Assembly (NCBI GenBank): GCA_035574275.1
Contig: DATLYY010000007.1
Coordinates: forward strand, 4,928-68,927
Reading direction: 5' to 3'
Origin: Verrucomicrobiia bacterium
Lineage (GTDB): Bacteria > Zixibacteria > MSB-5A5 > DSPP01
DNA: 64,000 nt
Below are positions 43,183 to 61,812 of this stretch, in pieces. The stretch's first letter is position 1; every line of letters begins with the position of its first letter. The notes below the pieces were generated by a model. That model worked only from the letters and a program-made list of their open reading frames with translations. It was not told the DNA's origin and ran no database searches. Both the position numbers and the translations under genes were made by a program.

Positions 43183-43197
43183 CACAGGGGAGAAGCG

Positions 43198-44397
43198 ATG
43201 CCGGTATTTGAGTACAAGGGAAAATCGATGGGGGGCGCCGCGGTAGCCGGCGAGTTGAAGGCCAAAAACCGCGCCGAACTGGAACGGATTCTCCGCTCCA
43301 ACCGGATTCTGGTCACTTCCGTGACCAAAAAAGCGTCTGAAATCAAGCTTCCCACGTCCAACCGTATCCGGAAAATCGACATTTCCCGTTTCACCCGGCA
43401 GTTCGCCACGATGATCGGGGCCGGGCTGCCGATGGTGCAGTGCTTGGATATCTTGGCCCAGCAGATGGAATCTCTGGCTTTTCGCAAAATTATCGCGGAA
43501 GTGCGGGATTCGGTCTCTTCCGGTTCCACCCTGGCGGAGGCCTTGGGAAAGCACAAAAAAGTTTTTGATGAACTGTACTGCAACATGGTTGAAGCGGGAG
43601 AGGTCGGTGGCGCATTGGATACCATTCTGGTCCGGTTGGCTACTTACCGGGAGAAAGCGGACGCTTTGAACCGCAAGGTAAAAGGGGCGATGGTCTATCC
43701 GGCGGTCATTATGATCGTGGCCGCGGGCGTTACCTTTGCCATGCTTACCTACATCGTGCCGATTTTTGCAAAGATGTTCGCCAATTTGGGGACGGAACTG
43801 CCGGCCCCCACGCGGATGGTTTTGAAAATCAGCAACTTTATCCGGGATTTTTTCTGGTACGGCGTGACCTTGCTCGTGGTCGGTGCCTTCGTCTTCAGCC
43901 GCTGGATCAAGACGGACAAGGGGCGGCTGGCTTTCGACAAGTTTAAACTGAAGATACCCTTGATCGGGTCCTTGATCCGCCGCACGGCCGTAGCCCGGTT
44001 CACCCGGACGCTGGGCACTTTGATCTCCTCCGGTGTTTCCATTCTGGACGCGTTGGATACGACCGCAAAGACGGCTGGCAACCGGGTCGTGCATGACGCC
44101 ATCAAAAAATCGGTTTTGTCGATTGCCGAAGGGGAAACCATCACGCAGCCCCTAAAGGAGTCGGGCGTTTTCCCGCCGATGGTAATCCAGATGATTTCCG
44201 TGGGGGAAAAAACCGGCGGATTGGATGAGATGCTGCAAAAAATTGCCGATTTCTATGACGAAGAGGTGGATGCCGCCGTTTCGGCCTTGACCTCCATCAT
44301 CGAGCCGGTCATCATCCTTTTTATGGGTGTGGTTATCGGCGGCATTCTGATTGCCATGTATCTGCCGATGTTCGACATCGTGGGCGCCATCAAGTAG
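43198..44397 (+). CDS. pilC: type IV pilus platform protein PilC (GspF family)
   Basis: 399 aa. Two T2SSF repeats and three TM segments. Confidence 0.85.
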   Translation: MPVFEYKGKSMGGAAVAGELKAKNRAELERILRSNRILVTSVTKKASEIKLPTSNRIRKIDISRFTRQFATMIGAGLPMVQCLDILAQQMESLAFRKIIAEVRDSVSSGSTLAEALGKHKKVFDELYCNMVEAGEVGGALDTILVRLATYREKADALNRKVKGAMVYPAVIMIVAAGVTFAMLTYIVPIFAKMFANLGTELPAPTRMVLKISNFIRDFFWYGVTLLVVGAFVFSRWIKTDKGRLAFDKFKLKIPLIGSLIRRTAVARFTRTLGTLISSGVSILDALDTTAKTAGNRVVHDAIKKSVLSIAEGETITQPLKESGVFPPMVIQMISVGEKTGGLDEMLQKIADFYDEEVDAAVSALTSIIEPVIILFMGVVIGGILIAMYLPMFDIVGAIK

Positions 44398-44511
44398 CGT
44401 TTGGCAACCCGAAAGCCCTTCTCCCGTTTGGCAACAACAGACCGGATAAGGGCTTTTTTGTTGGGTTTGCTTTGTCGGGCCGGGCGGAGCTCGGCCGGAG
44501 CGTGAAAGCAA

Positions 44512-46275: not shown

Positions 46276-46327
46276 ATGGTGACATGGGGATAGGGATTCT
46301 CGAAAGAAGTTTAGAGATGACAAAAAA

Positions 46328-46358
46328 GCCCCCGACGTACGTCGGGGGCTTTTTCTTT
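46328..46358. terminator. bidirectional rho-independent terminator between the PilS-like gene (+) and the PilX-like gene (-)
   Basis: GCCCCCGACG-TA-CGTCGGGGGC perfect 10-bp stem, flanked by A-run (5') and T-run (3'). Confidence 0.7.
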
Positions 46359-46365
46359 GTGGACG

Positions 46366-48048: not shown

Positions 48049-48073
48049 TGTGATTGCCTCCATTCCTTTTCAA

Positions 48074-48958
48074 TTAGAGAAGGTTCAAATTGCGCAAATG
48101 TACTTCGGAAGTCAGCGTCCGCAGGCGGAAACCGCCGTCGGACGGCCAGTTTGGATCCCGTTTTTGGGTGCGGCTCTGCACCAGAATCTGCACATTCTGG
48201 ATATCGCGGGCGTCCCGGCCGGCGGCCACAAAATCGGTCACCGTGTCAGGTGTTGCGCCACCCAGGATGTAGACGAACTGCAAATCGACGATGTCTTCGG
48301 CATAGATCTGGGGGGCCTGGCCGTTACGCACCTTCATCAGTTTGGGATGGGCGGGGTCGGTGGTGTTATCGATGTAGTATTTGGCTTCTTCCATCACCAG
48401 AACAAAGTCTCCCGGTTTCGGTTCCCCCTGCAAAACTTCGGCATGGTGGATTTCCTGCCAGCCGTTGCCGGGATTGTAGGAAGTGTTGGTCAAGGTAAAC
48501 CATTCCCCGGAAGGTTCGCCGGGTGAAGGGTTGAGGTGGACCAGGTAAACCTGCTGCCCGATGAAGGGGGTAAAACAGTTCACCGTGTCCCGCGTGTGGA
48601 TGGGGCGGGACTGTTGAATTTGAGTATGGTCGCCGACCGTGATGATGCAGCCGGTTTTGTTGTACCGGACGAGAATGGTATCCGGGTTGGCATCCACCGC
48701 GACCACCGGAGCAAAACCGGCGGGGATTTCCGCCCCGGCCGCCATGATGTTCGTGGTTAGCTCATCCAGCGCAATGCGGCTATTTTGCTGGGCGTTGGCG
48801 ATTTCTTCCTGCACGGAATAAACCTGATGCTCCCGGCCGTAGAATTGAAAGGCGGCCAGGCTTATGATGGACAGCAAGATGGCGGAGACTAAAAGTTCCA
48901 CCAGGGTGAAACCGCATGATTTTCGGATTCTTGCGAGCACTTGAATTCTCTTTTTCAT
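48074..48958 (-). CDS. type IV pilin-like protein (PilW-like minor pilin)
   Basis: Class III signal peptide 'KSCGFTLVELLVSAILLSIISLAAF' (G/FTLxE prepilin peptidase motif). About 295 aa, typical PilW size. Start at 48958 preceded by AAGGAG. Confidence 0.7.
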   Translation of the reverse strand: MKKRIQVLARIRKSCGFTLVELLVSAILLSIISLAAFQFYGREHQVYSVQEEIANAQQNSRIALDELTTNIMAAGAEIPAGFAPVVAVDANPDTILVRYNKTGCIITVGDHTQIQQSRPIHTRDTVNCFTPFIGQQVYLVHLNPSPGEPSGEWFTLTNTSYNPGNGWQEIHHAEVLQGEPKPGDFVLVMEEAKYYIDNTTDPAHPKLMKVRNGQAPQIYAEDIVDLQFVYILGGATPDTVTDFVAAGRDARDIQNVQILVQSRTQKRDPNWPSDGGFRLRTLTSEVHLRNLNLL

Positions 48959-49155
48959 ATTCGCTCCTTCGTCTTTCACGGTTTCGCAAGGGGTGTGCCC
49001 GTTATTTTGGTAAAATTCCCCAAGGGGGACAAGGACTTACCTGGGCGCAAGTTTGGGGGGGTGTTTTTTAATATGGGAACTTTCCCATAGCCTTCCCGTT
49101 GTAGGCGCGCAAGTCAGCTCCAATCATAAATGCGGGGGAAGGGCAGCAGTCGCTG

Positions 49156-49257: not shown

Positions 49258-51597
49258 ATGTCGAACTTGTTTAGAAAACTGGCCGGCTGCACCCTTTTGG
49301 CCGTTTTTGTGCTGGCCCCGGCCGTCGTTTTCGCCGGTGAAGGGAATGTGGTTTTGCCGCCGTTTGACCGCTCGGTGAATATCGCTTTGTATCTGGTCTT
49401 GTTTTCGGCCGTGGTGGCGCTGGCCTACGGTGCCTACCTCATCCGCAAGGTTATGGCGCAGGAGGAAGGTACGGCCAAAATGATAGAGGTCGCCCGGGCC
49501 GTGCAGGAAGGGGCCAAGGCGTATTTGACCCAGCAGATGAGGGTACTGGCGGGCTTCATCGTTCTTCTATCCATCATCATTTTCCTGGTCTATTCCAACG
49601 TTTATAAAATGGAGGATGGTGCCACCAATTGGAAGTTGGTTTGGGGCATTGCCGTCGCCTTCTTTCTCGGTTCCTGTCTTTCGGCGGCCACCGGCATCAT
49701 CGGAATGTCGGTTGCCGTGCGCGGGAACGTCCGCACGGCCAACGCCGCCCGCACCTCTTTCAAAAAGGCCTTGGAAGTGGCCTTCGAAGCCGGCACGGTG
49801 ACCGGAATGTTCACGGTCGGAATGGGGCTTTTGGGAGCCACCATCATCTTTATGATTTTCAAAGAGCATGCCATGCAGGTTTTAATCGGCTTCGGCTTCG
49901 GCGGCTCCTTGGTCGCTTTGTTCATGCGTGTCGGCGGTGGGATTTACACCAAGGCCGCGGATGTGGGCGCTGACCTCGTAGGCAAAGTGGAAGCCGGCAT
50001 TCCAGAAGATGACCCGCGCAACGCTGCCACCATCGCCGACAACGTGGGGGACAACGTGGGGGACTGCGCCGGGATGGCTGCCGATTTGTTCGAGTCATAC
50101 GAAGTGACACTTGTCGCCGCCATGATTTTAGGGGCCGCATTTGTTCAGTACGACCCGGATTTGGCTTTGAAAATGATTCTTTTCCCGCTTTTGGTGCGTG
50201 CTGTTGGCGTTTTCGCCTCCATTTTTGGCGCAATGTCGGTACGCGGGCAGGATCGGGATGATTTCAACCCGATGCGCCCGATTCAAAATGGTTTTGTGGT
50301 CGCCGCCATCATTTCCACCATCGGCTTCGGATTGGTGAATTACTTTTACATCCAGGGCCCGCCGGGATTTTTCTGGGCCACCTTCTCCGGAATTTTGCTG
50401 GCCGTGATAATCAGTTACCTGACCGAATACTATACCGCTTTGGAATACTCCCCGGTCAAAGAGACCGCCAAGGCGACCCGCACCGGGCCCGCCACCACCA
50501 TCCTTTCCGGCTTTGCGGAGGGGCTGGAATCCACTTCCGTGGCGGTTTTGGTCATCGCCGTCACCGTGGTCACATCATTTTTGATATTTCGGAATTTCTC
50601 CGCCGATGCGGGGGCCAATCTGGCGATGGCCGCCTACGGCATCGCCTTGGCAGGGATGGGGATGCTGACCACCACCGGTATCATCGTCTCGATGGATACC
50701 TACGGGCCGATTTCGGACAACGCCAACGGTATTTTTGAAATGTCCAAGGTTCTGGAGGAGGACAAAAACCCAAAGGCGCACGCCATCGTTCACAAACTGG
50801 ATGCCGTCGGCAACACCACCAAGGCAGTGACCAAGGGATTCGCCATCGCTTCGGCCGTCGTGGCCGCCGTGGCCCTTTTCCGCTCCTTCACCTCCGACGT
50901 GGATTTGCTGGACCCGGCCTTGAATTTCCCGGCGCTTGGCATTCAGGTGAATCTGCCCTTCGTTTTTGTCGGTCTTTTGATCGGCGGGGCGATGCCATTT
51001 CTTTTCTCCTCGATTGCCATCCGCGCCGTCGGCCGGGCCGCTTTCCTGGTGGTGGAAGAAGTGCGCCGCCAGTTCCGCGAGATACCGGGTATTATGAAAG
51101 GGACGGCAAAGCCGGAATACGGCAAGGTGGTCGCCATCACCACCGCCGCCGCCCAAAAAGAGCTTTTGGGGCCGGGGCTTTTGGCAATTTTGTCCCCCAT
51201 CATCGTCGGTTTCTATCTCGGCGTGGAAGGCCTGGGCGGCTTTCTGGCCGGCATCATTTTGACCGGTCAGCTCTTGGCCGTTCTTCTGTCCAACGCCGGC
51301 GGAACCTGGGACAACGCCAAAAAACTGGTGGAACAGGGGATGTACGGCGGCAAGGGTTCGGAAGCGCACAAAGCCGGCATCATTGGCGACACGGTGGGGG
51401 ATCCGTTCAAGGACACCGCCGGGCCTTCGCTCAACCCGCTCATCAAGGTGATGAACTTAGTGGCGCTTTTGATTCTGCCCTTAATCGTCGGCCCAAGCAA
51501 ACTTTCCAACGCGCTCGCCGTCGGCTCCGCCTCGGTGGCCTTGGTCGTTCTGATTATTTTCCTTATCCGCTCCAAGCGGGCCGCGCAGACGGATTGA
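49258..51597 (+). CDS. hppA: membrane-bound proton- or sodium-translocating pyrophosphatase
   Basis: 779 aa, 15-16 TM segments. Hallmark 'GGIYTKAADVGADLVGKVE' and 'DNVGDNVGDCAGM' motifs. Confidence 0.92.
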   Translation: MSNLFRKLAGCTLLAVFVLAPAVVFAGEGNVVLPPFDRSVNIALYLVLFSAVVALAYGAYLIRKVMAQEEGTAKMIEVARAVQEGAKAYLTQQMRVLAGFIVLLSIIIFLVYSNVYKMEDGATNWKLVWGIAVAFFLGSCLSAATGIIGMSVAVRGNVRTANAARTSFKKALEVAFEAGTVTGMFTVGMGLLGATIIFMIFKEHAMQVLIGFGFGGSLVALFMRVGGGIYTKAADVGADLVGKVEAGIPEDDPRNAATIADNVGDNVGDCAGMAADLFESYEVTLVAAMILGAAFVQYDPDLALKMILFPLLVRAVGVFASIFGAMSVRGQDRDDFNPMRPIQNGFVVAAIISTIGFGLVNYFYIQGPPGFFWATFSGILLAVIISYLTEYYTALEYSPVKETAKATRTGPATTILSGFAEGLESTSVAVLVIAVTVVTSFLIFRNFSADAGANLAMAAYGIALAGMGMLTTTGIIVSMDTYGPISDNANGIFEMSKVLEEDKNPKAHAIVHKLDAVGNTTKAVTKGFAIASAVVAAVALFRSFTSDVDLLDPALNFPALGIQVNLPFVFVGLLIGGAMPFLFSSIAIRAVGRAAFLVVEEVRRQFREIPGIMKGTAKPEYGKVVAITTAAAQKELLGPGLLAILSPIIVGFYLGVEGLGGFLAGIILTGQLLAVLLSNAGGTWDNAKKLVEQGMYGGKGSEAHKAGIIGDTVGDPFKDTAGPSLNPLIKVMNLVALLILPLIVGPSKLSNALAVGSASVALVVLIIFLIRSKRAAQTD

Positions 51598-51616
51598 AAC
51601 TCTTTTGCCTTACTTG

Positions 51617-51648
51617 AGGGGCGCGGCTCTCCGCGCCCCTTGTTTTTT
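51617..51648 (+). terminator. rho-independent terminator of hppA
   Basis: AGGGGCGCGG-CTCT-CCGCGCCCCT 10-bp stem followed by TGTTTTTTG. Confidence 0.75.
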
Positions 51649-51652
51649 GCCT

Positions 51653-51698
51653 CAACTGTCAACTTTTGGACACCAAGTGTCAACTTTTTTGCATTGAC
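51653..51698. repeat. 46-nt direct repeat, copy 1 (contains TGTCAA-N4-TGGACA and TGTCAA-N10-TTGAC)
   Basis: 43/46 identical to 54930-54975. Sits immediately after the hppA terminator and about 250 nt upstream of the Cys-rich lipoprotein gene. Confidence 0.8.
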
Positions 51699-51948
51699 GG
51701 GCGTTTGGTTTTCCTCTCATTTTATTCCCGTATGCTATGGCAGGAGCGTAACTGGGGTAGAGATTTTTGGGGAAATAGCCGCATCATAAACCGCAACCTC
51801 ACCCGGCTTGGCAACCGGGGGAGATCTCTTCCAGCCTCCGTTCGTGTGAAAGGAGGTAGTTTATAACCTAAAACAATCCATTTTGAGTGTAAGTGAACAG
51901 CATTTTGTTGGACCGAACTTGACCCGTTTCTTGGAAAGGAGCAGGTTT

Positions 51949-52806
51949 ATGCTATCCAGATTCCGCTTGACACAAACTTTCAAAGGGCTTACTCTTTTTG
52001 TGCTTATGTCCTTTATTTTATCCGTTTGGGCAGGATGTTCGGATACTAAAATCACGGGTACAGATGTGCCGTTAGTCAGCTCAGCACCGGAATTTTTAGG
52101 GAAAGTTGATACGGCCGGGTGCGAACAATGTTCCGCCAAAAAAGAAGTGGATAGTGGTACACCAAACAAGATCGGATTGTTTCTTGCAACCGATCGTGGC
52201 GACGATGGAACAGAGTCGGAGCCCGCGCCGCCATATTTGGTGACCGATGGACCGGAGCTCCAACTTTTGGTGGGGATGGCCAATGGCAACCCCACGGTAG
52301 CCGCCGCAAAGGCATATTTGATTGCCGGCGGGTTCTATTATGCTCCTTCAGTCGCAATAGGGGTAAGAGATCATTACGGTGGAAATGAAATCGTCTATCT
52401 GCCATTTGGTGTGTTTTCCGACCCCAATACAGCTGCTTATCTCATTTATGCCAATTCACAAGGCCAAAGCGCTTCCGCCGTTGGTTATGTAAAAGCCACC
52501 AATACTTATCCAGGAAATGGGTACGAATACTGGACCACCTTCCAGACGGATGATGGTTCGTATAAACAAGTATGGGTTAAGACAGTAAGCCTGACTCCCA
52601 TTGGAGGTAACACAGTTGTAACCGATTGCAACGCTCGATACTGGAAGTGTTTTTTGGGTGGAGCGCTGTTAGGTTGCCGCGGAGCTACGCTTCGGTGTCT
52701 GATAATGGGGCCGGCTACGCTGGTTTGTGCTGCCACAGGTTGCGCATTCGCTATGATTCCCGCTGCGTTGGGTTGCGGTGTTCGTACCGCTCAAGGATGC
52801 CAATAA
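51949..52806 (+). CDS. secreted (lipo)protein with a Cys/Gly-rich hydrophobic C-terminal region; no recognisable family
   Basis: Start at MLSRFRLTQ... preceded by AAGGAG. Signal peptide ending VWAGC. Last about 60 aa contain 10 Cys within hydrophobic/Gly context (CNARYWKCFLGGALLGCRGATLRCLIMGPATLVCAATGCAFAMIPAALGCGVRTAQGCQ). Local GC is lower than the rest of the window. Confidence 0.6.
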   Translation: MLSRFRLTQTFKGLTLFVLMSFILSVWAGCSDTKITGTDVPLVSSAPEFLGKVDTAGCEQCSAKKEVDSGTPNKIGLFLATDRGDDGTESEPAPPYLVTDGPELQLLVGMANGNPTVAAAKAYLIAGGFYYAPSVAIGVRDHYGGNEIVYLPFGVFSDPNTAAYLIYANSQGQSASAVGYVKATNTYPGNGYEYWTTFQTDDGSYKQVWVKTVSLTPIGGNTVVTDCNARYWKCFLGGALLGCRGATLRCLIMGPATLVCAATGCAFAMIPAALGCGVRTAQGCQ

Positions 52807-52845
52807 TAAACGGAATGGTGTAACTTCGGAAAAAGGAGGAAAAAG

Positions 52846-53067
52846 GTGAGCAATTCTAATTCCAATTTCAGAAATGGAAGGCAACTGCTTATTTCGCTCA
52901 TTGTGGCTATTATTGTGGGTGTTCTCTGGGGTTGGTTAACCACGATTAAGGCACTCGACGAGTGGTGGCGGTACTTCACGTTTGGCCTCCTTATTTCCGA
53001 GATTTATCATTACGGCTACTGGATTCCCAAACTCAAAGCCGAAGGGAAGCTTATCATTAAGAAATAA
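52846..53067 (+). CDS. small two-TM membrane protein (73 aa)
   Basis: GTG start after AAAGGAGG. Two hydrophobic helices (LLISLIVAIIVGVLWGWL; YFTFGLLISEIYHYGYWI). Followed by a terminator. Confidence 0.5.
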   Translation: MSNSNSNFRNGRQLLISLIVAIIVGVLWGWLTTIKALDEWWRYFTFGLLISEIYHYGYWIPKLKAEGKLIIKK

Positions 53068-53083
53068 ATTTTCGTTCCGTTGC

Positions 53084-53115
53084 AAGGCCGCTTCATTGAA
53101 GCGGCCTTTTTATTT
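53084..53115 (+). terminator. rho-independent terminator after the small membrane protein gene
   Basis: AAGGCCGCTTC-ATT-GAAGCGGCCTT stem followed by TTTTATTT. Confidence 0.7.
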
Positions 53116-53148
53116 CCTAAACTCACAATCGCCTTCCTAAAAAAGCAC

Positions 53149-53176
53149 TTGACAAGCTCCTAAAGCACCTTATATA
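53149..53176 (+). promoter_or_regulatory. near-consensus sigma70-type promoter (TTGACA-16 nt-TATATA)
   Basis: TTGACA at 53149-53154 and TATATA at 53171-53176. Upstream of the small secreted ORF and the TPR-HTH regulator. Confidence 0.5.
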
Positions 53177-53225
53177 TTTTTTCCGATATTAAAAGTAGAG
53201 CCATAGACCGAAAGGAGTGGTGATT

Positions 53226-53513
53226 GTGCGTCCGCTGGCCTTTAAATTTTTAACCCTTGCGTTAACCATGTTCCTGCTCCTTTCGTTTTCCCTTTCCGCT
53301 TTCGCCTTGCCCCTCCGCTATTGGCTGGCCACTCGGGATGTGGATGAACAACCGTACCCGGCGGCTTCCCGCAATGCGACCTATTTTGTGGTTCTGAAGA
53401 CGACGTACGGAATTGTGTTAATACCGGTTTTTGTAAAATCGGGCAAAATCTCAAACGCCATTACCCCGGAAAAGTCGGGTTTTTCATCAGGGAAAAATGA
53501 AATCCTCGACTAA
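53226..53513 (+). CDS. small secreted protein (about 95 aa), hypothetical
   Basis: GTG start 8 nt after AAAGGAG. N-terminal signal peptide (FKFLTLALTMFLLLSFSLSAFA). Overlaps the start of the downstream regulator by 17 nt. Confidence 0.4.
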   Translation: MRPLAFKFLTLALTMFLLLSFSLSAFALPLRYWLATRDVDEQPYPAASRNATYFVVLKTTYGIVLIPVFVKSGKISNAITPEKSGFSSGKNEILD

Positions 53514-54927
53514 ACGGCTCTCCGTACTGTCCGAAAAGCTTAGAAAGACCAATTCCCTGGTCAAAACGAACAAGTTTCAGGAAGCGCTTGCGGAATTAAA
53601 TTCCTTGTCGGATGCTTTTGACGCAACGGATTTCTCCGAAGAGCGGGCCCAATTTAATTATTTGCGCGGACTTGTCCTCTGGCGGTTGGGAGAAAAAAAG
53701 CAGGCCTTGGAGCCAGCTCGAAACGCTTTGAAGTCCTATTTATTTCTGAAGAGTTTCGTGGGAGTAGCCAAATCGCAAAGTTTGCTTGGGTATGTTCTTA
53801 TCGATTTAGGCAATTTAGAGGATGCGGAAGAGCATTTGCAATTGGCGGTTTCCAGTTTTAAGCTGGCGAACGATTGGTCGCAGGCCGCCAGGGCTTTGAA
53901 CCGCATCGCTTACCTGTACAGCATTCGTGGAAAGCTGGACTTTGCAAACTATTTCAATGACCAAGCCCGAACCTGCGCCGTTAGGGCCAACGACCGGTAC
54001 TATGAGCAGTTGTTAGGGTGCAGTCGCGCCGTTCATTGCCGGTTGGCCGGGGATTGGAAATCCGCCCTTGAAAAGTTGGATGATTTTTTGAATCAAAGCA
54101 AAAAGGCCGCGGACTACTTCAGCCATGTTTTCGGATTGATTAACGCGGGTCATGCCAAATTTCTTGGCAATCTTTTGAAACAAGCGCGGGATCATTATTT
54201 GGAAGCCATCCGGGTCGCAAGCCGAGAGAATTTGATAGGCAGTTTGAAAGTCGCCTACGAATTTTTAGCCGAGCTGGATATTGCCGAAGGGCGGTATGCC
54301 GAGGCGGAGGAGAACCTCAAAAAGGCGCTGGAAATCGGCGAGCGAGTCTCCCCGTACGGCACCATTATGACCCAGTGCTGGCGCTTGATGGGGGATTTGC
54401 GGCTGGCCCAAAAAGAATACGATCGGGCCATGGAGGCCTACGCCACTTGCCGGAGCTACTTGATTAAACTGCCCGAGAAACTCGAAGAAGGTGCGATGTA
54501 TCGCGGGATGGGTATCTGCCACATCCGCAAAGACCAGTTCTCGCTGGCGCAGGCGGCATTCAAAAAAGCGATTGAAATTTTCGAGGCGTGCGAAAACGAT
54601 TGGGAGCTGGCAAAAACCTACGTGGAAGCGGCCGAGTGCGGGGCATTTGCTCTGGCCGAACTCCGCTCCAAGCTCGCCTGGGCCAAGGGGATTTTCCATG
54701 AACTGGAACACCCTTCTTGGGAGAAAAGAGTGGAGGTGCTTTTGGGGCATTCTGAACCCTCCTCGAACGGAATCCCGTTACGCTTGGCCCACGAAATGGC
54801 CGACCGCCAAAGAGTCACCCAGGCCCTTTTCGAAACCGGAGGAAACATCTCCCACGCGGCCGAAAAGCTGGGGATTTCCCGCCCGGCCCTGCACTACAAA
54901 ATCAAACGCTACAAATTGGCGGTATAG
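53497..54927 (+). CDS. TPR-repeat transcriptional regulator with C-terminal Fis-type HTH (HTH_8)
   Basis: 476 aa. Multiple TPR-like helical repeats. C-terminal 'RQRVTQALFETGGNISHAAEKLGISRPALHYKIKRYKL' is a canonical Fis/NtrC-type HTH. No AAA+ domain. Confidence 0.75.
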   Translation: MKSSTKRLSVLSEKLRKTNSLVKTNKFQEALAELNSLSDAFDATDFSEERAQFNYLRGLVLWRLGEKKQALEPARNALKSYLFLKSFVGVAKSQSLLGYVLIDLGNLEDAEEHLQLAVSSFKLANDWSQAARALNRIAYLYSIRGKLDFANYFNDQARTCAVRANDRYYEQLLGCSRAVHCRLAGDWKSALEKLDDFLNQSKKAADYFSHVFGLINAGHAKFLGNLLKQARDHYLEAIRVASRENLIGSLKVAYEFLAELDIAEGRYAEAEENLKKALEIGERVSPYGTIMTQCWRLMGDLRLAQKEYDRAMEAYATCRSYLIKLPEKLEEGAMYRGMGICHIRKDQFSLAQAAFKKAIEIFEACENDWELAKTYVEAAECGAFALAELRSKLAWAKGIFHELEHPSWEKRVEVLLGHSEPSSNGIPLRLAHEMADRQRVTQALFETGGNISHAAEKLGISRPALHYKIKRYKLAV

Positions 54928-54929: not shown

Positions 54930-54975
54930 CAACTGTCAACTTTTTGACACCAAGTGTCAACTTTTTTACGTTGAC
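54930..54975. repeat. 46-nt direct repeat, copy 2 (contains palindrome TGTCAA-N4-TTGACA and TGTCAA-N10-TTGAC)
   Basis: 43/46 identical to 51653-51698. Begins 3 nt after the regulator stop codon, about 310 nt upstream of the Yip1 gene. Confidence 0.8.
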
Positions 54976-55287
54976 CCCCTTTTATATTCCCTTTCATATT
55001 ACCACCGGTTTTGGAAGCGCGTCCCTGAAATGGGACTTCGGGGGAATGCCCATTTGCCCCACGCCTCCTCCGGCAGAGCCGCTCCACCCTTTTTCGGGGA
55101 GATTGCCGGGGGAGGCATTTTTTAGTTCCCATCAAAACGATGCCCGGCGGGTAAGCGGCCTTGCCGTTGTCTGTTTGCCCTCCAACCCCTATTCCAAGAC
55201 CCCCTCTCAATCGTTATATTAAAATTTGTGACGGTAGTCAGTTTTTGCAACCTCACGGAAAAAACGGCGTATGAGAAAATGACGTAG

Positions 55288-56034
55288 ATGGGAGGAACGA
55301 TGGAACAAGCGATGGCGGCCCCGGCGGCCATGCAGCCGGGCGGCGATTTGGGTTTTTTGGCCCGCTGGGCCAATATCTATTTTTCGCCCAAGAAGGTCTT
55401 TGAGGCGGTGAAAGCCCGCCCTTATTGGGTGGTACCGATGGTTCTTCTCGTGCTTCTGGGAACCGGATTCTATTTCTGGACCTCCGGGGCGCGGATGAAC
55501 GACACGTTAGAGAAGATGCGCAAAAACGAAAATATCATGGCGATGCCGGCCGAACAGCGCCAGGAAATTTTCGACCGGGTGGAAAGCCAGTTCAAAAGCC
55601 CGCTGTGGGGTTCCGTGGGGGTTCTTTTCGGAATCGCCTACTTTTTCATCGCTGCCGGAATTTTGTTTTTCGTCGGCAACATTATAATGGGAGGGGAAGC
55701 CCGCTTCGCCCAGGTTTTGGGGGCCTTCGTGTACACCGGGTTTATCGGCGTCCCGGAAATGCTGGTGCAGGGGCTTTTGGCCGCAGCCAAGGGAAGTTTG
55801 AACACGGCTTTGTCGTTGGCTGCCTTTTTCCCGCCCGACCAATCGGAAACTTTCGTCTATCGGTTGATCAACGGCTTCGACATTTTTTCCATCTGGTTCA
55901 TCTCGGTTTTGATTATCGGCCTGGCCACGGTTTACAATTTCAAAGCCGGCAAGGTGGCGGCTTGGATTCTGCCGCTCTGGGTTCTTTGGAAGGTGATTGC
56001 CGCGGCCTTGGCCGGTCTGGGCATGGGTTTTTAA
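55288..56034 (+). CDS. Yip1-domain integral membrane protein
   Basis: 248 aa. Soluble N-terminus then 5 TM segments with Yip1-family spacing. Alternative start at MEQAMAAP (55300). Confidence 0.65.
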   Translation: MGGTMEQAMAAPAAMQPGGDLGFLARWANIYFSPKKVFEAVKARPYWVVPMVLLVLLGTGFYFWTSGARMNDTLEKMRKNENIMAMPAEQRQEIFDRVESQFKSPLWGSVGVLFGIAYFFIAAGILFFVGNIIMGGEARFAQVLGAFVYTGFIGVPEMLVQGLLAAAKGSLNTALSLAAFFPPDQSETFVYRLINGFDIFSIWFISVLIIGLATVYNFKAGKVAAWILPLWVLWKVIAAALAGLGMGF

Positions 56035-56047
56035 ATTTGGAGGAAGG

Positions 56048-57364
56048 ATGAAGAGAATAGTACTCATTAGTTTTTGTCTTGTCTTTGGGGCGGTCGCCGC
56101 TTGGGCGCAGGTCAAGCCGCTGACCTTGAACGACGCCCTTTCGACCGCTTTGGAGAAAAACTTCGGCTACCGCATTGCCGAGGGAAACTGGGAAGTGGCG
56201 AAAGCGGAAAAAACGGGTGCCGCGGGAGGGCTTTTGCCCTTTGTCTCCGTCGGTTTGTCCTACGGCTGGACCAAGCGGGGCCCTTCCTCCTCCTTTACGC
56301 AGGGTCTCATAGTCGTTCCCGGTTCGAATCAGACCACCACCACGGCCAACTACAGTTTGGGGCTGGAGATCCGCCAGGATTTGTTCGACGGAGGGGCTTC
56401 CTTCTCCGGTTACAAAGCCGCTTCGGCTTCGGAAGCCGCCGCGCGCGAGGGTTTTCGCGGCGCCCGGCAGCAGCTTGTTTTCGACGTCCGGAATTCCTAC
56501 TATTCGGCTCTCAAAGCCAAATTGCTTTTGGAAGTCCAAAAAGACGTAGTAAAAAGGGGGGAGGAGCAGTTGAAAATCGCCCAGGCCCGCTACGATTTGG
56601 GCTCGGCCTCCCTATCCGACGTTTTGAAAGCGAGGGTTTCCTACGCCAACGACCAGCTGGCCTTGATTTCGGCCGAGAACAGCTATCAGGTTTCGCTGGC
56701 CAATCTGAACTCCATCATCGGCGAAAACGTCAATGATTCCATTGAACTGGCCGATACATTGGTGCCTCCGTCCGAGTTGAATTTGGGTTTTGAAGAGGCC
56801 CTGCTAAAGGCCGAAAAAAATCATCCCGACTTATTGGCTGCCCAGGAAAATATGAAGGCGGCCGACTGGGGAGTGCAGGCCGGGCGGGCAGGGCTCTATC
56901 CATCCTTATCCTTGAACGCCGGCTACGGCTGGAACAACCGGGATTTTTCCCGTGTCACCTCCCTTTTTGACCGGGATTACCAGTGGCGGTTTGGGTTTTC
57001 CATCGGCTACAACATTTTTGACCGGTTTTCCACCTACCAGTCGATAAAATCCTCCCAGGCCCGGCATTCCAACGCGCGGGAAACGTACCTGCAGACCAAA
57101 AGCCGGGTGGCGCTCGAAGTCAAGCAAGCGTTTCTGGATATGGCTCAGGCCAAACAGAAGCTGGAGGTGACCAACCAGCAATCGGAATCGGCGGAGGAGG
57201 ATTTGAACATCGTGCAGGAAAAATACAATCTTGGAGCGGCCACCATTCTGGAACTCTTGGATGCCCAGGTGAGCTACAAGCAGGCCAAGTCGGACCAGGT
57301 GCAGGCGCTCTTCGACTACAACCTGGCGGCGGCGCGGCTTAAAAAATCAATCGGCGAGGAGTGA
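56048..57364 (+). CDS. tolC: TolC-family outer-membrane efflux channel
   Basis: Start at MKRIVLISF (signal peptide) preceded by GGAGGAAGG. Two OEP repeats, 'LTLNDALSTALEKN' N-terminus, coiled-coil periodicity. Confidence 0.85.
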   Translation: MKRIVLISFCLVFGAVAAWAQVKPLTLNDALSTALEKNFGYRIAEGNWEVAKAEKTGAAGGLLPFVSVGLSYGWTKRGPSSSFTQGLIVVPGSNQTTTTANYSLGLEIRQDLFDGGASFSGYKAASASEAAAREGFRGARQQLVFDVRNSYYSALKAKLLLEVQKDVVKRGEEQLKIAQARYDLGSASLSDVLKARVSYANDQLALISAENSYQVSLANLNSIIGENVNDSIELADTLVPPSELNLGFEEALLKAEKNHPDLLAAQENMKAADWGVQAGRAGLYPSLSLNAGYGWNNRDFSRVTSLFDRDYQWRFGFSIGYNIFDRFSTYQSIKSSQARHSNARETYLQTKSRVALEVKQAFLDMAQAKQKLEVTNQQSESAEEDLNIVQEKYNLGAATILELLDAQVSYKQAKSDQVQALFDYNLAAARLKKSIGEE

Positions 57365-58614
57365 AAATGAAAACCAAGACAAAAATCTTCATCGGCATAG
57401 GCGCGGGGCTTGTCATTCTGGCCTTGGTGCTGGTCAACCTCAAGCGCTCCTCCTCTTCGGAGATAAAAGTGGAGGCGGAAAAACTGAAGCGGACCGACAT
57501 CGTCTCCATCGTTACCGCCAACGGCAAAATCAAGCCGCGAACCGACGTCAAAATTTCGGCCAACATTTCGGCCCAGATTATTGAACTTCCGGTGGAGGAG
57601 GGGGATCGGATCCATCGCGGCCAGCTTTTGGTCCGGCTGGACCCCGGCCGCTATCGGGCCGCCGTGGACCAGGCCAAGGCCCAGTTAAAGCTGGAAAAGG
57701 CGAATCTGGATCAAGCCGAGCAGAATTTTAACCGGATCAAACCGCTCTTTGAAAAAAACCTGGCTTCCCAGGAGCAGTACGACCAATCCGCCACCCAGCT
57801 TTCAGTAGTCCGGGCCCGCCACGAGGCGGCCCAGCACAACTTGGAGCAGGCGGAGGATGATTTGTCCAAGACCATAATCAATTCCCCCATCGACGGCATC
57901 GTCTCCGAGCTTAGGGCCGAAAAAGGAGAAACGGTGATTCCAGGCACGATGAACAATCCCGGCACGGTGATCATGACCGTGTCCGATTTGTCGGCCATTG
58001 AGGTGGAGGTGGATGTGGATGAAACCGACATCGCATTGGTGAAAGTGGACCAGACCGCGGAAGTTTCCGTGGACGCCTTCCGGGACACCACCTTCAGGGG
58101 CCGGGTCATAGAAGTGGGAAGCGCCGCCTTGGCTCCCGGCGCCGGTTTGGGACAGGAACAGGTGACCAACTTCCGGGTCAAAATCCTGCTTTTGGACAAA
58201 GTCGCCGGCATCAAGCCGGGAATGACCGCCACCGCCGATATCGTCACCGCCGAAAGGAAAAACGTCCTTGCTGTTCCCATTCAGGCCGTGGTGCTGCGGG
58301 ATTCGTCCGCTTTGGTAAAAGCCAAGGAGAAAGACAAAAAAGACAGCGGGGCATTCGCCTCCACACCGGCTTCCGCCCCGGCTTCAACCGCGGCTCCAAA
58401 AAAGAAAAAAGAGCTGGAAGGGGTATTCGTTATCCGGGACGGCAAGGCGGTTTTCGTCCCGGTCGTCGTGGGAATCGCCGACCAGACCAACATCGAAGTG
58501 CTATCCGGCTTGCAGGAGGGGGATATGATTATCACCGGCAGCTACAAAACCCTCCGGACGCTGGAGAACGAAGCGAAAGTAAAGACGGAGGAGAAGGGAA
58601 AGAAGGCCTCCTGA
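57361..58614 (+). CDS. macA: efflux adaptor (HlyD/MacA-family periplasmic membrane-fusion protein)
   Basis: 417 aa. N-terminal TM anchor, biotinyl-lipoyl-like and coiled-coil hairpin, beta-barrel and MP domains. Confidence 0.85.
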
Positions 58615-59300
58615 TGTTAATCCATATTCGCAATCTCTGGAAAACGTACGATATGGGGCAGGCCGTTCAGGTGCAGGCCCTGCGGGGGGTGGACTTGGAC
58701 ATCGAACGGGGGGAATACATCGCCATTATGGGCCCTTCCGGTTCGGGAAAGTCGACACTGATGAATCTAATCGGCTGTCTGGACACTCCCTCGGAAGGAA
58801 CCTACGAGCTGAACGGCCGGATGGTCTCCCAGCTTTCGGATGACGAGCTGGCCTTCATCCGGAACAAGGAGATCGGCTTCGTCTTTCAGACCTTCAACTT
58901 GCTGGCCCGGGCGACGGCCTTGCACAACGTCGAACTTCCCCTGATTTACAACGGCACTCCGGCCGGGGAGCGGAAGAAAAAAGCGCAGCAGGCCCTGGCG
59001 GCGGTCGATTTAACCGACCGGGCGCATCACAAGCCGAACGAACTCTCCGGCGGGCAGCGGCAAAGAGTAGCCATCGCCCGCGCGCTGGTGAACAGCCCTT
59101 CGATTATCCTGGCAGACGAGCCGACCGGGAATTTGGACTCCGCCACCGGGGCAGAGATTATGCAGCTTTTCGACCGGCTTCACAAACAAGGGAACACCAT
59201 CATTTTGGTCACCCACGAGCACGACATCGCCGCCTATGCCGAGCGGAGCGTGCATCTGCGGGACGGCAAAATTGAAAAGGACGAACGCCGGGCGGCGTAA
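58614..59300 (+). CDS. ABC transporter ATP-binding protein (MacB/LolD-type)
   Basis: 228 aa. Walker A 'GPSGSGKST', signature '[15 protein letters not shown]', Walker B '[11 protein letters not shown]'. Confidence 0.9.
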
Positions 59301-59312
59301 GGGTATTGCGAC

Positions 59313-60569
59313 ATGGGAAAACTGAAAACGCCGATTTGGGAAAGCGTTAAAATCTCGCTTACCTCCCTGCGGGCGAATAAGCTCCGCTCTATTTTGACCT
59401 TAGTCGGTGTCATCATCGGCGTCACCTCGATTATAACCATGGTCTCTTTGATTTCCGGTTTCAACAAGCTGGTGGCCGACCAGTTGGCGACTTTGGGCTC
59501 CACGACCTTTATCGTAGAAAAATTCGGCATCATTTTGTCCGACGACGACTGGTTCGACGCCATGAAACGCAAGGATTTGACCTTGGCTGACTACCAGGCG
59601 GTGGTAGCCGGCTGCACGGAATGCGAGGAGGTTGCGCTGCAAAAAGTTTCCAACCGCAAGGTCAAATACGGGCGGGAGCATTTTTCCCGTGTCCCGATTG
59701 TCGGCATCACCCCAAATTACATGAAAGTGGTGGCGCTGGACGACATCGTGGACAAGGGGCAGGGGCGGGTGATCACCGAGTTCGAAAACGACCACCGCCG
59801 GCAGGTGGTGATTTTGGGGCCGGAGCTGACCGACAAATTTTTCCCGATGCTCGACCCGATCGGCAAAAAAGTCAGAATCGGCGACGCCGACTTCACCGTG
59901 GTGGGAGTGCCCAAAAAGCGGGGTTCTTTTCTGGGAGACAACCAGGACCGTTTCGCCGCCATCCCCTTCAGCGTTTATCAAAAATATTTTTCCAACAAGC
60001 TGGAACCCTGGGAAGGGCTTCAGTTTTACATCAAGGCCAGGGATTATCCTTCGATGGAAAAAGCCCAGGATCAGGTGCGGGCCATTCTGCGCGCCCGCCG
60101 TCACGTTCCCTACCACGCCAAGGATGATTTCGGCATGTACACGGCGGAAACCTTGATGGATCTGTTCAAACAGGTGACCACCGGGATTTCCTTCACGCTG
60201 GTAGGCATCGTTTCCATTTCCCTTCTGGTCGGCGGCATCGTGATTATGAACATCATGCTGGTTTCCGTCACCGAGCGGACCCGCGAAGTCGGCGTCCGCA
60301 AGGCCCTCGGCGCCCGCCGCCGCTCGATTTTGTTGCAATTTTTGATTGAATCGGTCACCCTCGCGGTGGTGGGCGGCACAATTGGGATTTTTCTGGGGGT
60401 TTTATTGGCCAAAGTGATTTCCTGGACCACCCCGATACCGGCCGCCATCGAGCCCTGGTCGATAATCGCCGGGCTTTTGGTTTCCACCGGCGTGGGGGTT
60501 TTCTTTGGCGTTTTCCCGGCCGCCAAGGCGGCCCGGCTGGATCCCATCGAGGCGTTGCGTTATGAATAA
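59313..60569 (+). CDS. ABC transporter permease, FtsX/MacB-type (periplasmic domain + 4 TM)
   Basis: 418 aa. MacB_PCD-like periplasmic region between TM1 and TM2. C-terminal FtsX domain. Confidence 0.85.
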   Translation: MGKLKTPIWESVKISLTSLRANKLRSILTLVGVIIGVTSIITMVSLISGFNKLVADQLATLGSTTFIVEKFGIILSDDDWFDAMKRKDLTLADYQAVVAGCTECEEVALQKVSNRKVKYGREHFSRVPIVGITPNYMKVVALDDIVDKGQGRVITEFENDHRRQVVILGPELTDKFFPMLDPIGKKVRIGDADFTVVGVPKKRGSFLGDNQDRFAAIPFSVYQKYFSNKLEPWEGLQFYIKARDYPSMEKAQDQVRAILRARRHVPYHAKDDFGMYTAETLMDLFKQVTTGISFTLVGIVSISLLVGGIVIMNIMLVSVTERTREVGVRKALGARRRSILLQFLIESVTLAVVGGTIGIFLGVLLAKVISWTTPIPAAIEPWSIIAGLLVSTGVGVFFGVFPAAKAARLDPIEALRYE

Positions 60570-61812
60570 ATTCCGCTGGGCGGAGATGCGGGAGGGGATG
60601 GCTCTGGCCTTCGACAGTTTGCGCGCCCACAAAATGCGCTCCTTTTTAACCATGCTCGGAGTTTTCATCGGCGTACTTTCGGTCATCGCCATGGCTTCCA
60701 TCATCGAGGGGCTGAACCGTTCGGTCTCCGACCAGATTCAAAACCTTGGCTCCAATGTTATCTTCGTCACCCGGTTCAAAATTGGTTTTCAATTCGGCGA
60801 CCGTTCGGAAGAGGAGCGGCTGCGCAAGCCGATCACCTTCGAAACCGGCGAGGCAATCAAGGAGTTCTGCCCGGCCGTGGACGCCGTTTCCCCGCAAAAC
60901 TACGTTTTCGTGGACGGCGGCAACGTCGCCAAATACAAGGGAAACACCTTCAAGCGTCCCTCCCTTTTCGGCACCCTGCCGGACTACGAGCGTGTGAACA
61001 ATCACTATGTGGAGCAGGGGCGTTTCATCACCGATATCGACCACCATTTCAAGGCGATGGTCTGCGTCATCGGCGCCGACGTAGCCGAAGCGCTTTTTCC
61101 CAAAATCGAGCCGATCGGCAAGGAGATTTTGGTGAACAACCACAAGTACCGGGTGGTGGGGGTGATGGAGCACCGCAAATCCAATCTGGGGCGAAACTCC
61201 AACAACATCATCGTGCTTCCTTACGGCACCTTCGCCCGGCTGCATCCCTGGGAAAAGGAGCTTCTACTTGTAGTGCGCAGCCGCTCGCTGGAAGAACAGC
61301 AGTTGGCGATGGATCAAATTGAATCCGCCCTGCGCCGCCAGCGGGGGGTTCCCTACAACAAGCCGAACGATTTCGAGCTGGCCACCCAGGAGCAGTTGTT
61401 GGAATCCTTCCGCTCCGTCACGATGGGAATTTTCTTTTTGATGATAGGCATTTCCGGCATTGGGCTTTTGGTCGGCGGCGTCGGCGTGATGAACATCATG
61501 CTCGTTTCGGTCAAGGAGCGCACGCGGGAAATCGGCATCCGCAAGGCGATCGGCGCCAAGCGCAGAAACATCCTCTGGCAGTTTTTGATTGAGGCCGTCA
61601 CCCTTTCCTGCTCCGGCGGCATAGCCGGAATCCTCATCGGCACGGGCATCGCCCTTTTAATCGGTGCCACCACGCCCTTGCCGGCGGCCGTCTCGCCGGT
61701 CTGGGTTTTCATCGGCTTCACCGTATCCGTTTCGGTTGGGCTGGTCTTCGGCATCTACCCCGCCTATCAGGCCGCCAAACTGGACCCAATAGTTGCCTTG
61801 CGGTACGAATAG
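60562..61812 (+). CDS. second ABC transporter permease, FtsX/MacB-type (LolC/LolE-like pair with the upstream gene)
   Basis: Start at MNKFRW (60562) overlaps the upstream stop. Same architecture as the preceding gene, about 35% identical by eye. Confidence 0.85.
   Translation: MNKFRWAEMREGMALAFDSLRAHKMRSFLTMLGVFIGVLSVIAMASIIEGLNRSVSDQIQNLGSNVIFVTRFKIGFQFGDRSEEERLRKPITFETGEAIKEFCPAVDAVSPQNYVFVDGGNVAKYKGNTFKRPSLFGTLPDYERVNNHYVEQGRFITDIDHHFKAMVCVIGADVAEALFPKIEPIGKEILVNNHKYRVVGVMEHRKSNLGRNSNNIIVLPYGTFARLHPWEKELLLVVRSRSLEEQQLAMDQIESALRRQRGVPYNKPNDFELATQEQLLESFRSVTMGIFFLMIGISGIGLLVGGVGVMNIMLVSVKERTREIGIRKAIGAKRRNILWQFLIEAVTLSCSGGIAGILIGTGIALLIGATTPLPAAVSPVWVFIGFTVSVSVGLVFGIYPAYQAAKLDPIVALRYE

Follow-up and report, generated by a model that had tools for sequence, protein, structure and literature searches.

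The 64-kb window analysed here (64,000 nucleotides of contig DATLYY010000007.1) carries, 3' of an H+-pyrophosphatase gene, a gene for a secreted protein with an extremely Cys-rich C-terminal tail and, directly downstream, a gene for a small membrane protein. We found that these two genes form a clean, self-contained inserted module. The Cys-rich protein, named 'hypothetical protein VNL73_01625 [Verrucomicrobiae bacterium]' at NCBI, appears from its sequence to belong to a new, undescribed family, which probably functions like known peptide toxin and immunity systems. We tentatively read the cassette as a bacteriocin-like toxin together with its cognate immunity protein, a pair of a new family, and rate this reading as possible, at a little below an even chance. 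The coordinates of the features are collected in Table 1.

To place the cassette, syntenic loci were recovered with the neighbouring regulator gene as anchor. Among them, the 171-kb metagenome contig L010 encodes a regulator 81% identical to that of the window, and L005, from a Candidatus Zixiibacteriota metagenome-assembled genome (JAKEHY010000020; regulator 77% identical), is the closest syntenic genome locus. Both loci keep the order pilus genes, H+-pyrophosphatase, a secreted open reading frame (ORF) of 99-101 aa, a regulator with tetratricopeptide repeats (TPR) and an HTH_8 domain, YknW and TolC. By blastn, window positions 51400-51689 correspond to L010 5345-5631 and positions 53139-53441 to L010 5643-5945; the two flanks join in L010, and the cassette therefore replaces about 11 bp of it. 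The same cassette-sized gap was observed in L005 and L013. Between the pyrophosphatase gene and the 101-aa ORF, L010 has neither the Cys-rich ORF nor an ORF with two transmembrane (TM) segments, and none of the contigs recovered with the regulator as anchor showed a Cys-rich tail ORF; this holds for L011 and L012 too, which are short and constrain less. The locus L003, with a regulator only 46% identical, carries at the same place its own divergent pair of Cys-rich gene and partner.

We then searched for relatives of the Cys-rich protein. A word-indexed search of 5.8 billion proteins matched only the window protein itself, and the word-index homology searches for its relatives gave this protein and P0005, nothing else. 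An exhaustive phmmer scan of 1.84 billion 50%-identity representatives recovered four remote relatives, P0002 to P0005 (E 9e-9 to 7e-4), all from metagenome assemblies. The family is extremely rare, with five members, that of the window included, among the 1.84 billion representatives; four of the five lie on contigs of 1.5-3.7 kb, and none of the relatives was found on a viral contig. The four relatives have a common plan: a signal peptide and a variable linker, then a middle domain, then a tail of 50-60 residues that is rich in Cys, Gly and Ala and has a GPGW-like centre. P0002 and P0004 are 40% identical. The window protein and P0002 are 68% identical in the signal peptide and 9-24% identical in the rest of the window protein, so that the window protein looks like a mosaic, with a signal peptide and a 5' untranslated region (UTR) near those of P0002 and a divergent remainder. 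Sequence searches of Pfam, NCBIfam, PADLOC, PHROG and PDB gave no match for the Cys-rich protein, nor did profile searches of Pfam, NCBIfam and PDB with the five-member alignment; the first-pass annotation, made from the letters alone, had been unable to place the protein in a known family, and these empty family-library and PDB searches bear it out. Foldseek of the five-sequence structure model against PDB returned meaningless antibody matches only (TM-score about 0.12).

The gene has an AGGAG Shine-Dalgarno sequence 7-8 nt 5' of its ATG, which we preferred over an upstream TTG at 51883 because P0002 opens with the same MLSRF... signal peptide. ORFs on the opposite strand, e.g. 51861-52295 (-), were rejected as unsupported; they overlap the conserved coding frame. 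The N-terminus of the protein, MLSRFRLTQTFKGLTLFVLMSFILSVWAG followed by C30, consists of a basic n-region, then a hydrophobic core, then a lipobox-type Cys, and the VWAG-C30 junction presumably satisfies the PROSITE-type lipobox rule (PS51257). A lipobox is present in 4 of the 5 members (VWAG-C in the window, then LWVG-C, VFSG-C and MFVG-C), with the Cys conserved in P0002, P0004 and P0005; P0003 has a plain signal peptide without lipobox. By this signal the window protein would be a bacterial lipoprotein, probably lipidated at Cys30, and it contains neither a twin-arginine motif nor a double-glycine leader. In the linker, the window protein has a CEQC motif (C58 and C61; window 52120-52131) and P0003 has CEEPC; the other three members have neither. 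The middle domain is marked by the family motif G(Y/F)...G.R...(G/A).I..(L/I)PFG...D...AAFI.Y. AlphaFold2 (AF2), run with the five-sequence alignment, predicted for it two helices and at least six strands with a predicted local distance difference test (pLDDT) of 50-60, and it has no sequence or fold match.

The most distinctive part of the protein is its tail, whose sequence had been quoted exactly in the first-pass annotation and which goes beyond chance, since four independent relatives repeat both its architecture and its Cys geometry. It has eight Cys in 59 residues (positions 227, 234, 243, 250, 260, 265, 276 and 284), consists of 53% G+A+C+S+T and bears a net charge of +4. In the 64-kb window no other plausible gene has this Cys density, and the nested C...C-x9-C...C pattern is unique to this ORF. 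The spacing is C-x6-C-x8-C-x6-C-x9-C-x4-C-x10-C-x7-C in the window and C-x3-C-x7-C-x3-C-x9-C-x3-C-x7-C-x3-C in P0002 and P0004 (subtype B); the central C-x9-C around a conserved turn (C250-x9-C260 in the window) is invariant in all five tails. We counted the Cys distances from the turn centre. In the window they are -5, -12, -21 and -28 on arm 1 and +5, +10, +21 and +29 on arm 2. The corresponding values are -5, -9, -17, -21 and +5, +9, +17, +21 in both P0002 and P0004, -5, -9, -12, -21 and +5, +9, +10, +21 in P0003, and -5, -12, -21 and +5, +10, +21 in P0005. All 14 non-central Cys pairs are thus mirrored within two positions, which none of 20,000 random placements reached; when one of the two close relatives was left out, 1 of 20,000 was as good. 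The variable rungs are gained or lost on both arms jointly, positions without a rung being Gly, Ala or Ser on both sides, and the Cys counts are even throughout (8, 8, 8, 8 and 6).

An AF2 run on the single sequence was uninformative (pLDDT 38). With the five-sequence alignment, which gave moderate confidence for the tail and low confidence elsewhere, the tail was predicted as two helices, 222-253 and 257-284, joined by a GPA turn (pLDDT 71-77). We conclude that the two arms touch in antiparallel register. For a protein located in the periplasm, we read the facing Cys as disulfides; C250-C260, C243-C265, C234-C276 and C227-C284 would be the rungs in the window, and the family would have a ladder of three or four disulfides. 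The tail had been described beforehand as possibly 'disulfide-stapled'; this description gains from the mirrored, co-varying Cys and the predicted helix-turn-helix, from which we infer the formation of the disulfides themselves.

We also estimated the hydrophobicity of the arms, by a simple sum of the Hessa-type translocon scale with values from Hessa et al. 2005. The tail arms scored +1.4 to +5.2 kcal/mol, the first TM segment (TM1) of the small membrane partner -2.5 and the most hydrophobic stretch of halocin C8 +2.1. The 'membrane-like hydrophobicity' claimed in the first-pass annotation was therefore overstated: the arms fail as stop-transfer helices, and with these positive scores the tail resembles a secreted hydrophobic peptide more than a constitutive membrane anchor. 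Such an anchor, membrane-embedded or membrane-associated, is what would be expected under the main rival reading, a non-toxic envelope lipoprotein. Its Cys would act as small residues in a 'cysteine zipper' hairpin, by analogy with a glycine zipper, and the hairpin would pack on the small membrane protein in a stable complex for envelope stress or defence; with the co-regulated MacB-type pump described below, this complex might, for example, sense antimicrobial peptides or confer resistance to them. Indeed, the period-4 stripes C-x3-C-x3-(A/G)-x3-C-x3-C of P0002 and P0004 resemble GxxxG-type zippers, the small residues that replace Cys on both arms fit such packing, the partner is invariably a membrane protein, the control element is common to a pump of the peptide-resistance class (PMC5985334), and a lipid anchor with a conserved middle domain suits a resident envelope protein. 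However, independent packing predicts exchanges of Cys on one arm, whereas the gains and losses observed are on both arms with even counts; the arms score far above the partner's TM1, and arm 1 of the window contains two Arg. In addition, no member matched a Pfam glycine-zipper model (Rick_17kDa_Anti, Gly-zipper families) at E up to 10, and a housekeeping role is ill-suited to presence or absence among close relatives, to mosaicism and to extreme rarity. Altogether we consider this explanation rather unlikely.

Facing Cys pairs could also bind or relay Cu+, Hg2+, Cd2+ or reducing equivalents along or across the membrane, with the N-terminal CxxC as periplasmic acceptor and the small membrane protein as partner. 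MerT, MerF and DsbD-type proteins do use membrane Cys pairs. The eight Cys of the tail, in facing pairs about 4-8 residues apart over about 24 residues per arm, would agree with this, as would the linker motifs of the window protein and P0003, but the N-terminal CxxC is absent from P0002, P0004 and P0005, the tail has no His, Met or Asp ligands, and the number and positions of the rungs vary among members, which is unusual for a defined metal site. No mer, cop, czc, thioredoxin or cytochrome-biogenesis genes were found nearby, so that the metal-binding anchor proposed in the first reading finds no support in the gene context. A thiol metal or redox module is, in our view, improbable.

We next considered the small membrane protein, whose gene begins 39 nt 3' of the Cys-rich gene. 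It had been announced as a 73-aa protein with two TM segments. The ORF looks real, with basic N- and C-termini and a strong TM1; the second hydrophobic segment is weaker in the window and clear in relatives, so that two segments are likely. A small membrane-protein gene lies directly 3' of the Cys-rich gene in 5 of 5 loci, the window and four relatives; the co-occurrence raised as a question in the first-pass annotation thus holds in 4/4 relatives, though the partner is a 128-aa protein with four segments in some of them. In subtype B (P0002 and P0004) the 128-aa partners are homologous (31% identity, E 2e-11), and in subtype A (window, P0003 and P0005) the partners have 65-73 aa and a common (P)D..W loop: partner type tracks tail subtype. 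The constant adjacency and this tracking support the proposed immunity or partner role, immunity itself being what they suggest. The 73-aa partner has no match in PADLOC, PHROGs, Pfam and NCBIfam, and the partners of the relatives match no known family. At the P0002 locus, L002, a 69-aa ORF of a type typical of the other subtype follows the 128-aa one and could be an orphan immunity gene.

The protein may also be a polymorphic toxin of the lipoprotein kind that reaches its targets through cell contact or outer-membrane exchange; its conserved N-terminal part would direct localisation, its variable C-terminal hairpin would be the toxic cargo, and the product of the downstream gene would give immunity. 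This would be a sub-variant of the toxin-immunity reading, with another delivery route. Myxococcus SitA/SitI lipoprotein toxins have the same layout. The lipobox of 4/5 members, a conserved signal region and 5' UTR followed by a divergent body, the immunity-like gene downstream and the possible extra orphan partner gene in L002 all point in this direction. Against it, TraA/TraB-like or other delivery genes were not found nearby, the cargo is a 60-residue hairpin and not an enzyme domain, and P0003 has no lipobox; contact delivery has a small chance of being correct.

The Cys could also be modification sites of a ribosomally synthesised and post-translationally modified peptide (RiPP), sactipeptide-, glycocin- or lanthipeptide-like, as in the modified-peptide precursor suggested at first. 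A Cys-rich C-terminus is indeed the core-peptide position in RiPP precursors, and the C-x6-C spacings of the window are superficially like those of sublancin. But radical S-adenosylmethionine (radical-SAM), glycosyltransferase, LanM/LanB-type and peptidase genes are absent within about 15 kb on either side and on the short contigs of the relatives, and no radical-SAM maturase was found in the window from about 35 kb to 64 kb. Moreover, a protein exported with a Sec or lipoprotein signal is beyond the reach of cytoplasmic modification enzymes, and the 1.45-kb cassette was inserted as a two-gene unit. None of the tails matched TIGR04196, to which a sublancin sequence used as control scored 52 bits, and of the radical-SAM Cys-rich RiPP models only TIGR04118 was listed, as a noise-level hit of one tail (E 7.3, 6.7 bits for a cut-off of 35). 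With TIGR04196 unmatched and no glycosyltransferase nearby, membership of the glycocin (sublancin) family was rejected, and a RiPP precursor of any kind seems highly improbable.

The control region of the cassette links it to its neighbours. It is copy 1 of a 72-nt direct repeat. Two palindrome-like units of 16 bp, TGTCAACTTTTGGACA (51657) and TGTCAACTTTTTTGCATTGAC (51678), stand there at a spacing of 21 bp and are followed by TTGACG-N18-CATTTT; the palindrome consensus in the window is TGTCAA-N4-(T/G)GACA. A 34-nt core of the repeat occurs exactly twice in the window, for 0 expected. The tandem palindromes, of the TGTCAA-N4-TTGACA type except in L003, span 51657-51698 and 54934-54975 in the window and are found at L010 5620 and 7441, L005 7434, L003 103-145, L011 2410-2460, L012 3190-3240 and L015 480-530. 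The element is located 3' of the regulator gene in L005, L010, L011, L012 and L015, and in L010 both positions are occupied. We rejected the idea that the direct repeats are island attachment sites, the same palindromes flanking the regulator in the cassette-less L010. In L003, the recognition-helix region of the regulator differs and the half-sites before the Cys-rich gene are TGACGA-N4-TCGTCA with the same 21-bp spacing, a joint change expected if the TPR-HTH_8 protein binds the palindromes. This apparent operator-regulator covariation makes the TPR-HTH_8 protein the candidate palindrome binder. In L010 a single palindrome stands just 5' of the -35 box, in the promoter of the 101-aa ORF and the regulator; in the window (53100-53180) the cassette separates palindrome from promoter (53149-53178), so autoregulation of the regulator may be altered.

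Between this region and the Cys-rich gene, a leader of about 250 nt holds TTATTCCCGTATGC, a GC-rich stem-loop (51795-51826), a Shine-Dalgarno-like GGAGG (51852-51856) and ATA-ACC-TAA (51863-51871), a degenerate form of the ATG-NNN-TAA mini-ORF present in the relatives' leaders. A 12-bp stem is kept in 5/5 sequences, with one compensatory change. The leader has no Rfam match, and the window copy folds no better than shuffled sequence (z = 0.22). It is common to the Cys-rich genes of the window, L002 and L003 and to an unrelated 82-aa secreted ORF in L011 and L015, where this ORF follows the regulator in relatives without the Cys-rich cassette (leader spans L002 1-193, L003 145-403, L011 2460-2830 and L015 530-891). 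As one leader precedes differing cargo, the Cys-rich cassette looks like one of several plugged-in cargo modules. In the 82-aa ORF (L015 892-1140; L011 from about 2830) the N-terminal segment is hydrophobic, and a GGGG run and three Cys are present (MFLRKWKTGQVAVGLL...).

The regulator matches TPR_12 (2.6e-24) and HTH_8 (1.4e-12) in Pfam and has no AAA+ domain. Together with the 98-aa ORF that overlaps it, it follows a sigma-70-like promoter (53149-53178) with 11/12 positions matched, and the pair is kept in L003 (1885-3595), L005 (5718-7431), L010 (5712-7434), L011, L012 and L013. Across the loci the small secreted ORF has 98-123 aa, a signal peptide and the motifs DE.(P/G)YP and YFVVLKT..G..LIP.FVK; that of the window is without match in PADLOC, PHROGs, Pfam and NCBIfam. 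With a TPR-HTH receptor next to a small secreted product, the pair is reminiscent of peptide signalling of the RRNPP type, in this case in a lineage that resembles Zixibacteria. Further downstream, the pump operon encodes a YknW/Yip1 membrane protein, a TolC-type channel, an HlyD-type adaptor, an ATP-binding cassette (ABC) ATPase and two MacB-type permeases, with matches to Yip1 (2.3e-16), YknW_fam of NCBIfam (2.4e-20), OEP (2.6e-77), HlyD_D23, ABC_tran and, twice, MacB_PCD with FtsX.

Table 1. Features of the cassette and its surroundings, and partner-type genes at other loci (positions refer to the window unless a locus is named)
Feature	Position	Strand	Remarks
Accessory cassette	51690..53138	+	1449 bp: second palindrome, leader, Cys-rich gene, small membrane gene, terminator; blastn against L010
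Control region, copy 1 of the 72-nt direct repeat	51653..51724	+	82% identical to copy 2 over 72 nt
Conserved 5' leader	51724..51948	+	Aligns with leaders of L002, L003, L011 and L015
Cys-rich lipoprotein gene	51949-52806	+	ATG 51949, TAA 52804-52806, 285 aa
Putative signal peptide and lipobox (aa 1-30; VWAG-C30)	51949..52038	+	Sequence reading
Variable linker (aa 31-95)	52039..52233	+	pLDDT about 30; length and sequence unconserved among relatives
Middle alpha/beta domain (aa 96-215)	52234..52593	+	Motif kept in 5/5 family members
Predicted Cys-ladder hairpin (aa 222-285)	52612..52803	+	Arm 1, GPA turn, arm 2; mirrored Cys, AF2
Small membrane protein, candidate immunity or partner	52846..53067	+	73 aa; ORF, GGAGG Shine-Dalgarno
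Intrinsic-terminator-like hairpin ending the two-gene unit	53084..53108	+	11-bp stem, 7 GC pairs, T-run
Secreted 98-aa ORF	53217-53513	+	Overlaps the regulator gene
TPR and Fis-type HTH_8 regulator	53497-54927	+	476 aa
Copy 2 of the 72-nt element, 5' of the pump operon	54930..55001	+	Tandem palindromes, TTGACC-N18-CATATT
Candidate exporter or self-protection pump operon	55288..61812	+	Pfam and NCBIfam matches
Partner in L001			65 aa
Partner in L002 (P0002 locus)	L002 962-1348		128 aa, four segments
Second partner-type ORF in L002	L002 1410-1619		69 aa, two segments
Partner in L003			128 aa, four hydrophobic segments
Partner in L004			69 aa
ORF next to halocin C8-like gene	L017 1813-2019		68 aa; Halobacterium sp. 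GN101 megaplasmid
ORF next to halocin C8-like gene	L018 1808-2014		68 aa; Haloferax larsenii plasmid

From these elements we infer a scheme that covers disulfides, toxicity, immunity, cleavage, the export route and the palindrome-binding protein. The cassette would be transcribed from its own copy of the tandem-palindrome operator and leader, in the regulon of the adjacent TPR-HTH_8 regulator, which would also control the YknW-TolC-MacAB pump. Sec would export the 285-aa product, which would probably be lipidated at Cys30. Under the oxidising conditions of the periplasm, the last ~60 residues of the protein would fold into an antiparallel, probably helical hairpin locked by up to four nested inter-arm disulfides. 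This hairpin, rich in small residues, hydrophobic and, in the window copy, cationic, would be the effector, a very stable membrane-active module that would hit the membranes of competitors, be it once freed from the N-terminal carrier domain or while still displayed on the lipoprotein. The small inner-membrane protein encoded directly downstream would protect the producer. The pump may drive the oxidised peptide out of the periplasm, in the way of MacAB-TolC with enterotoxin STII; alternatively, it may prevent the peptide from reaching the membrane of the producer, in the way of YknWXYZ with SDP. As in bacteriocin and immunity operons, the small membrane gene lies directly downstream and is co-inherited (5/5 loci; one insertion unit). 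A double-glycine leader with a peptidase-containing ABC transporter (PCAT) is not found: the signal is of the Sec or lipoprotein type, and the MacB-type ABC system next to the cassette has no peptidase domain.

Among known systems, the layout most resembles that of halocin C8, a Cys-rich peptide of 76 aa that is released from the C-terminal end of a secreted 283-aa precursor and has genes for a regulator and ABC transporters near it (bioRxiv 10.64898/2026.07.27.741052). The precursor ProC8 (TIGR04449 and PF22862; an archaeocin, also in some bacteria) is of nearly the same length as the window protein (283 and 285 aa). Both have an N-terminal secretion signal, regulator and ABC-transporter genes near them, and a Cys-rich C-terminus of 60-76 residues (10 Cys in halocin, 8 in the window) with about 53% G+A+C+S+T and moderate hydrophobicity. 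However, the halocin signal is Tat (twin-arginine translocation) and that of the window protein Sec or lipoprotein type; the halocin pattern C-x2-C-x7-C-x3-C-x7-C-x13-C... has no mirror ladder around one turn, unlike that of the window family; and halocin immunity resides in the N-terminal part of the same precursor, whereas in the window a separate gene is the immunity candidate. The five full-length proteins and five tails had no match to TIGR04449 at E up to 10 (halocin control 59.1 bits, cut-off 24), and no member matched PF22862, Hac8_like_N, the HalI immunity domain, at E up to 10. Using hhalign, the tail profile gave a probability of 0.06-0.08% against the Natrinema protein P0006 or a 4-sequence halocin alignment, and the full-length profile 0.24% against halocin; a word-index search with the halocin C8 sequence found one Natrinema protein. 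Membership of the halocin C8 family was thus rejected, with models unmatched, profile probabilities below 1%, a signal that is not Tat and a different Cys pattern. Given this halocin-like layout without family membership, we class the cassette as a new family, with a mode of action that is probably that of known peptide toxin-immunity systems. On two haloarchaeal plasmids, a 68-aa membrane ORF with two segments lies within about 20 nt 3' of the annotated halocin C8-like precursor genes (Table 1); it could be an overlooked partner or immunity gene of these loci.

The predicted fold recalls other peptides. The gallocin A peptides GllA1 and GllA2 are disulfide-stabilised, membrane-permeabilising alpha-helical hairpins with regulated expression and a small downstream immunity protein, GIP (PMC10100652). 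The likeness lies in the predicted antiparallel alpha-helical hairpin, in Cys facing across the arms and in a small immunity or immunity-candidate gene directly downstream. Gallocin A differs in having about 50 aa, a double-glycine leader, one disulfide, a peptidase-containing ABC exporter and a Gram-positive host, whereas in the window the hairpin would be the C-terminus of a 285-aa diderm lipoprotein with three to four putative disulfides and no double-glycine leader; Pfam class IIb bacteriocin models gave no match. Plant alpha-hairpinins are helix-loop-helix peptides of the type C1XXXC2-(X)n-C3XXXC4, cut from larger modular precursors (PMC4695807). Here too, antiparallel helices are tied by nested disulfides, as we propose for the window family, and the subtype B tails amount to two nested alpha-hairpinin motifs; the window protein lacks the CX3C spacing. 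Alpha-hairpinins are eukaryotic, Lys/Arg-rich and soluble, with two disulfides, and homology was neither expected nor found. Fungal hydrophobins also have 8 Cys but in a different pattern with CC pairs, and the C-terminal sorting signals PEP-CTERM, MYXO-CTERM and GlyGly-CTERM were rejected too, the tail being too long, without a terminal basic cluster and without NCBIfam match.

For the pump, MacAB-TolC exports the Sec-delivered, DsbA-oxidised STII from the periplasm, and YknWXYZ and AS-48EFGH shield the producing cells from the peptide toxins that they make (PMC5985334). The window has the corresponding MacB-type ABC pump, adaptor and TolC, plus a YknW-type accessory protein, but here the link to the peptide consists only of adjacency and the shared 72-nt element, and the pump is also present in cassette-less relatives.

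Several points weigh against the toxin-immunity reading. The analysis identified neither an activity nor a cleavage site, a protease or an exporter dedicated to bacteriocins, there is no double-glycine or Tat leader, and no cleavage motif conserved among the five members was seen. A lipid-anchored precursor with a conserved middle domain of 120 residues is unusual for a bacteriocin. The mirror pattern shows that the arms are in contact, but taken alone it fits disulfides, tight small-residue packing or metal ligation alike. Moreover, with the rung spacings of the window, 7, 9, 7 versus 5, 11, 8, the Cys would not all share one face of ideal helices; kinks at Gly/Pro positions, or a less regular fold, are therefore likely. 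The regulator and the pump operon are also found in cassette-less relatives, so that coincidence in regulation or hitch-hiking may account for the link between them and the cassette. The cassette has a low GC content (49.5% versus 55.6%; 44% at third codon positions), but we rejected this as proof of transfer, since the adjacent regulator region is equally low and the bias is not specific to the cassette. Finally, the conserved context rests on few observations, five members mostly on short contigs.

Taken further, the toxin-immunity reading would make the cassette the founding member of a new diderm bacteriocin class: a cysteine-ladder hairpin on a Sec or lipoprotein route, with a lipoprotein pro-domain and a mini membrane antidote. 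The hairpin would be swappable cargo behind the conserved operator and leader of a peptide-sensing regulon of the TPR-HTH (RRNPP-like) type, and the co-regulated pump would serve for its export or tolerance. We regard this extended proposal as doubtful. If the toxin-immunity reading is right, it would add a structurally distinct scaffold, a 55-60-residue hairpin cross-braced by three or four disulfides, to the few peptide toxins known from non-model diderm phyla, and an independent case of the halocin C8 layout, with the toxin at the C-terminus of a secreted precursor of about 285 aa. It would also connect, in a way that can be tested, an endogenous peptide substrate with a MacB-type tripartite pump that has a YknW accessory protein. 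In the co-varying Cys rungs nature has run a compact experiment in hairpin design, and ultra-stable mini-proteins of this kind attract practical interest as scaffolds for antimicrobials or engineering. Should the protein prove non-toxic, its family would still be a secreted module that is unclassified and extremely rare and that bears a clear structural signature.

Two further observations concern the host and the neighbourhood. With a Candidatus Zixiibacteriota genome as closest syntenic genome locus, the NCBI source label 'Verrucomicrobiae bacterium' may be wrong. Immediately 5' of the H+-pyrophosphatase gene, a type IV pilus cluster (window 40358-48979) encodes PilB-like and PilT-like ATPases, a PilC-like T2SSF protein, a PAS histidine kinase, a PilX_N/DUF4900 protein and an N-methyl pilin-like protein, and this order is kept in L010.

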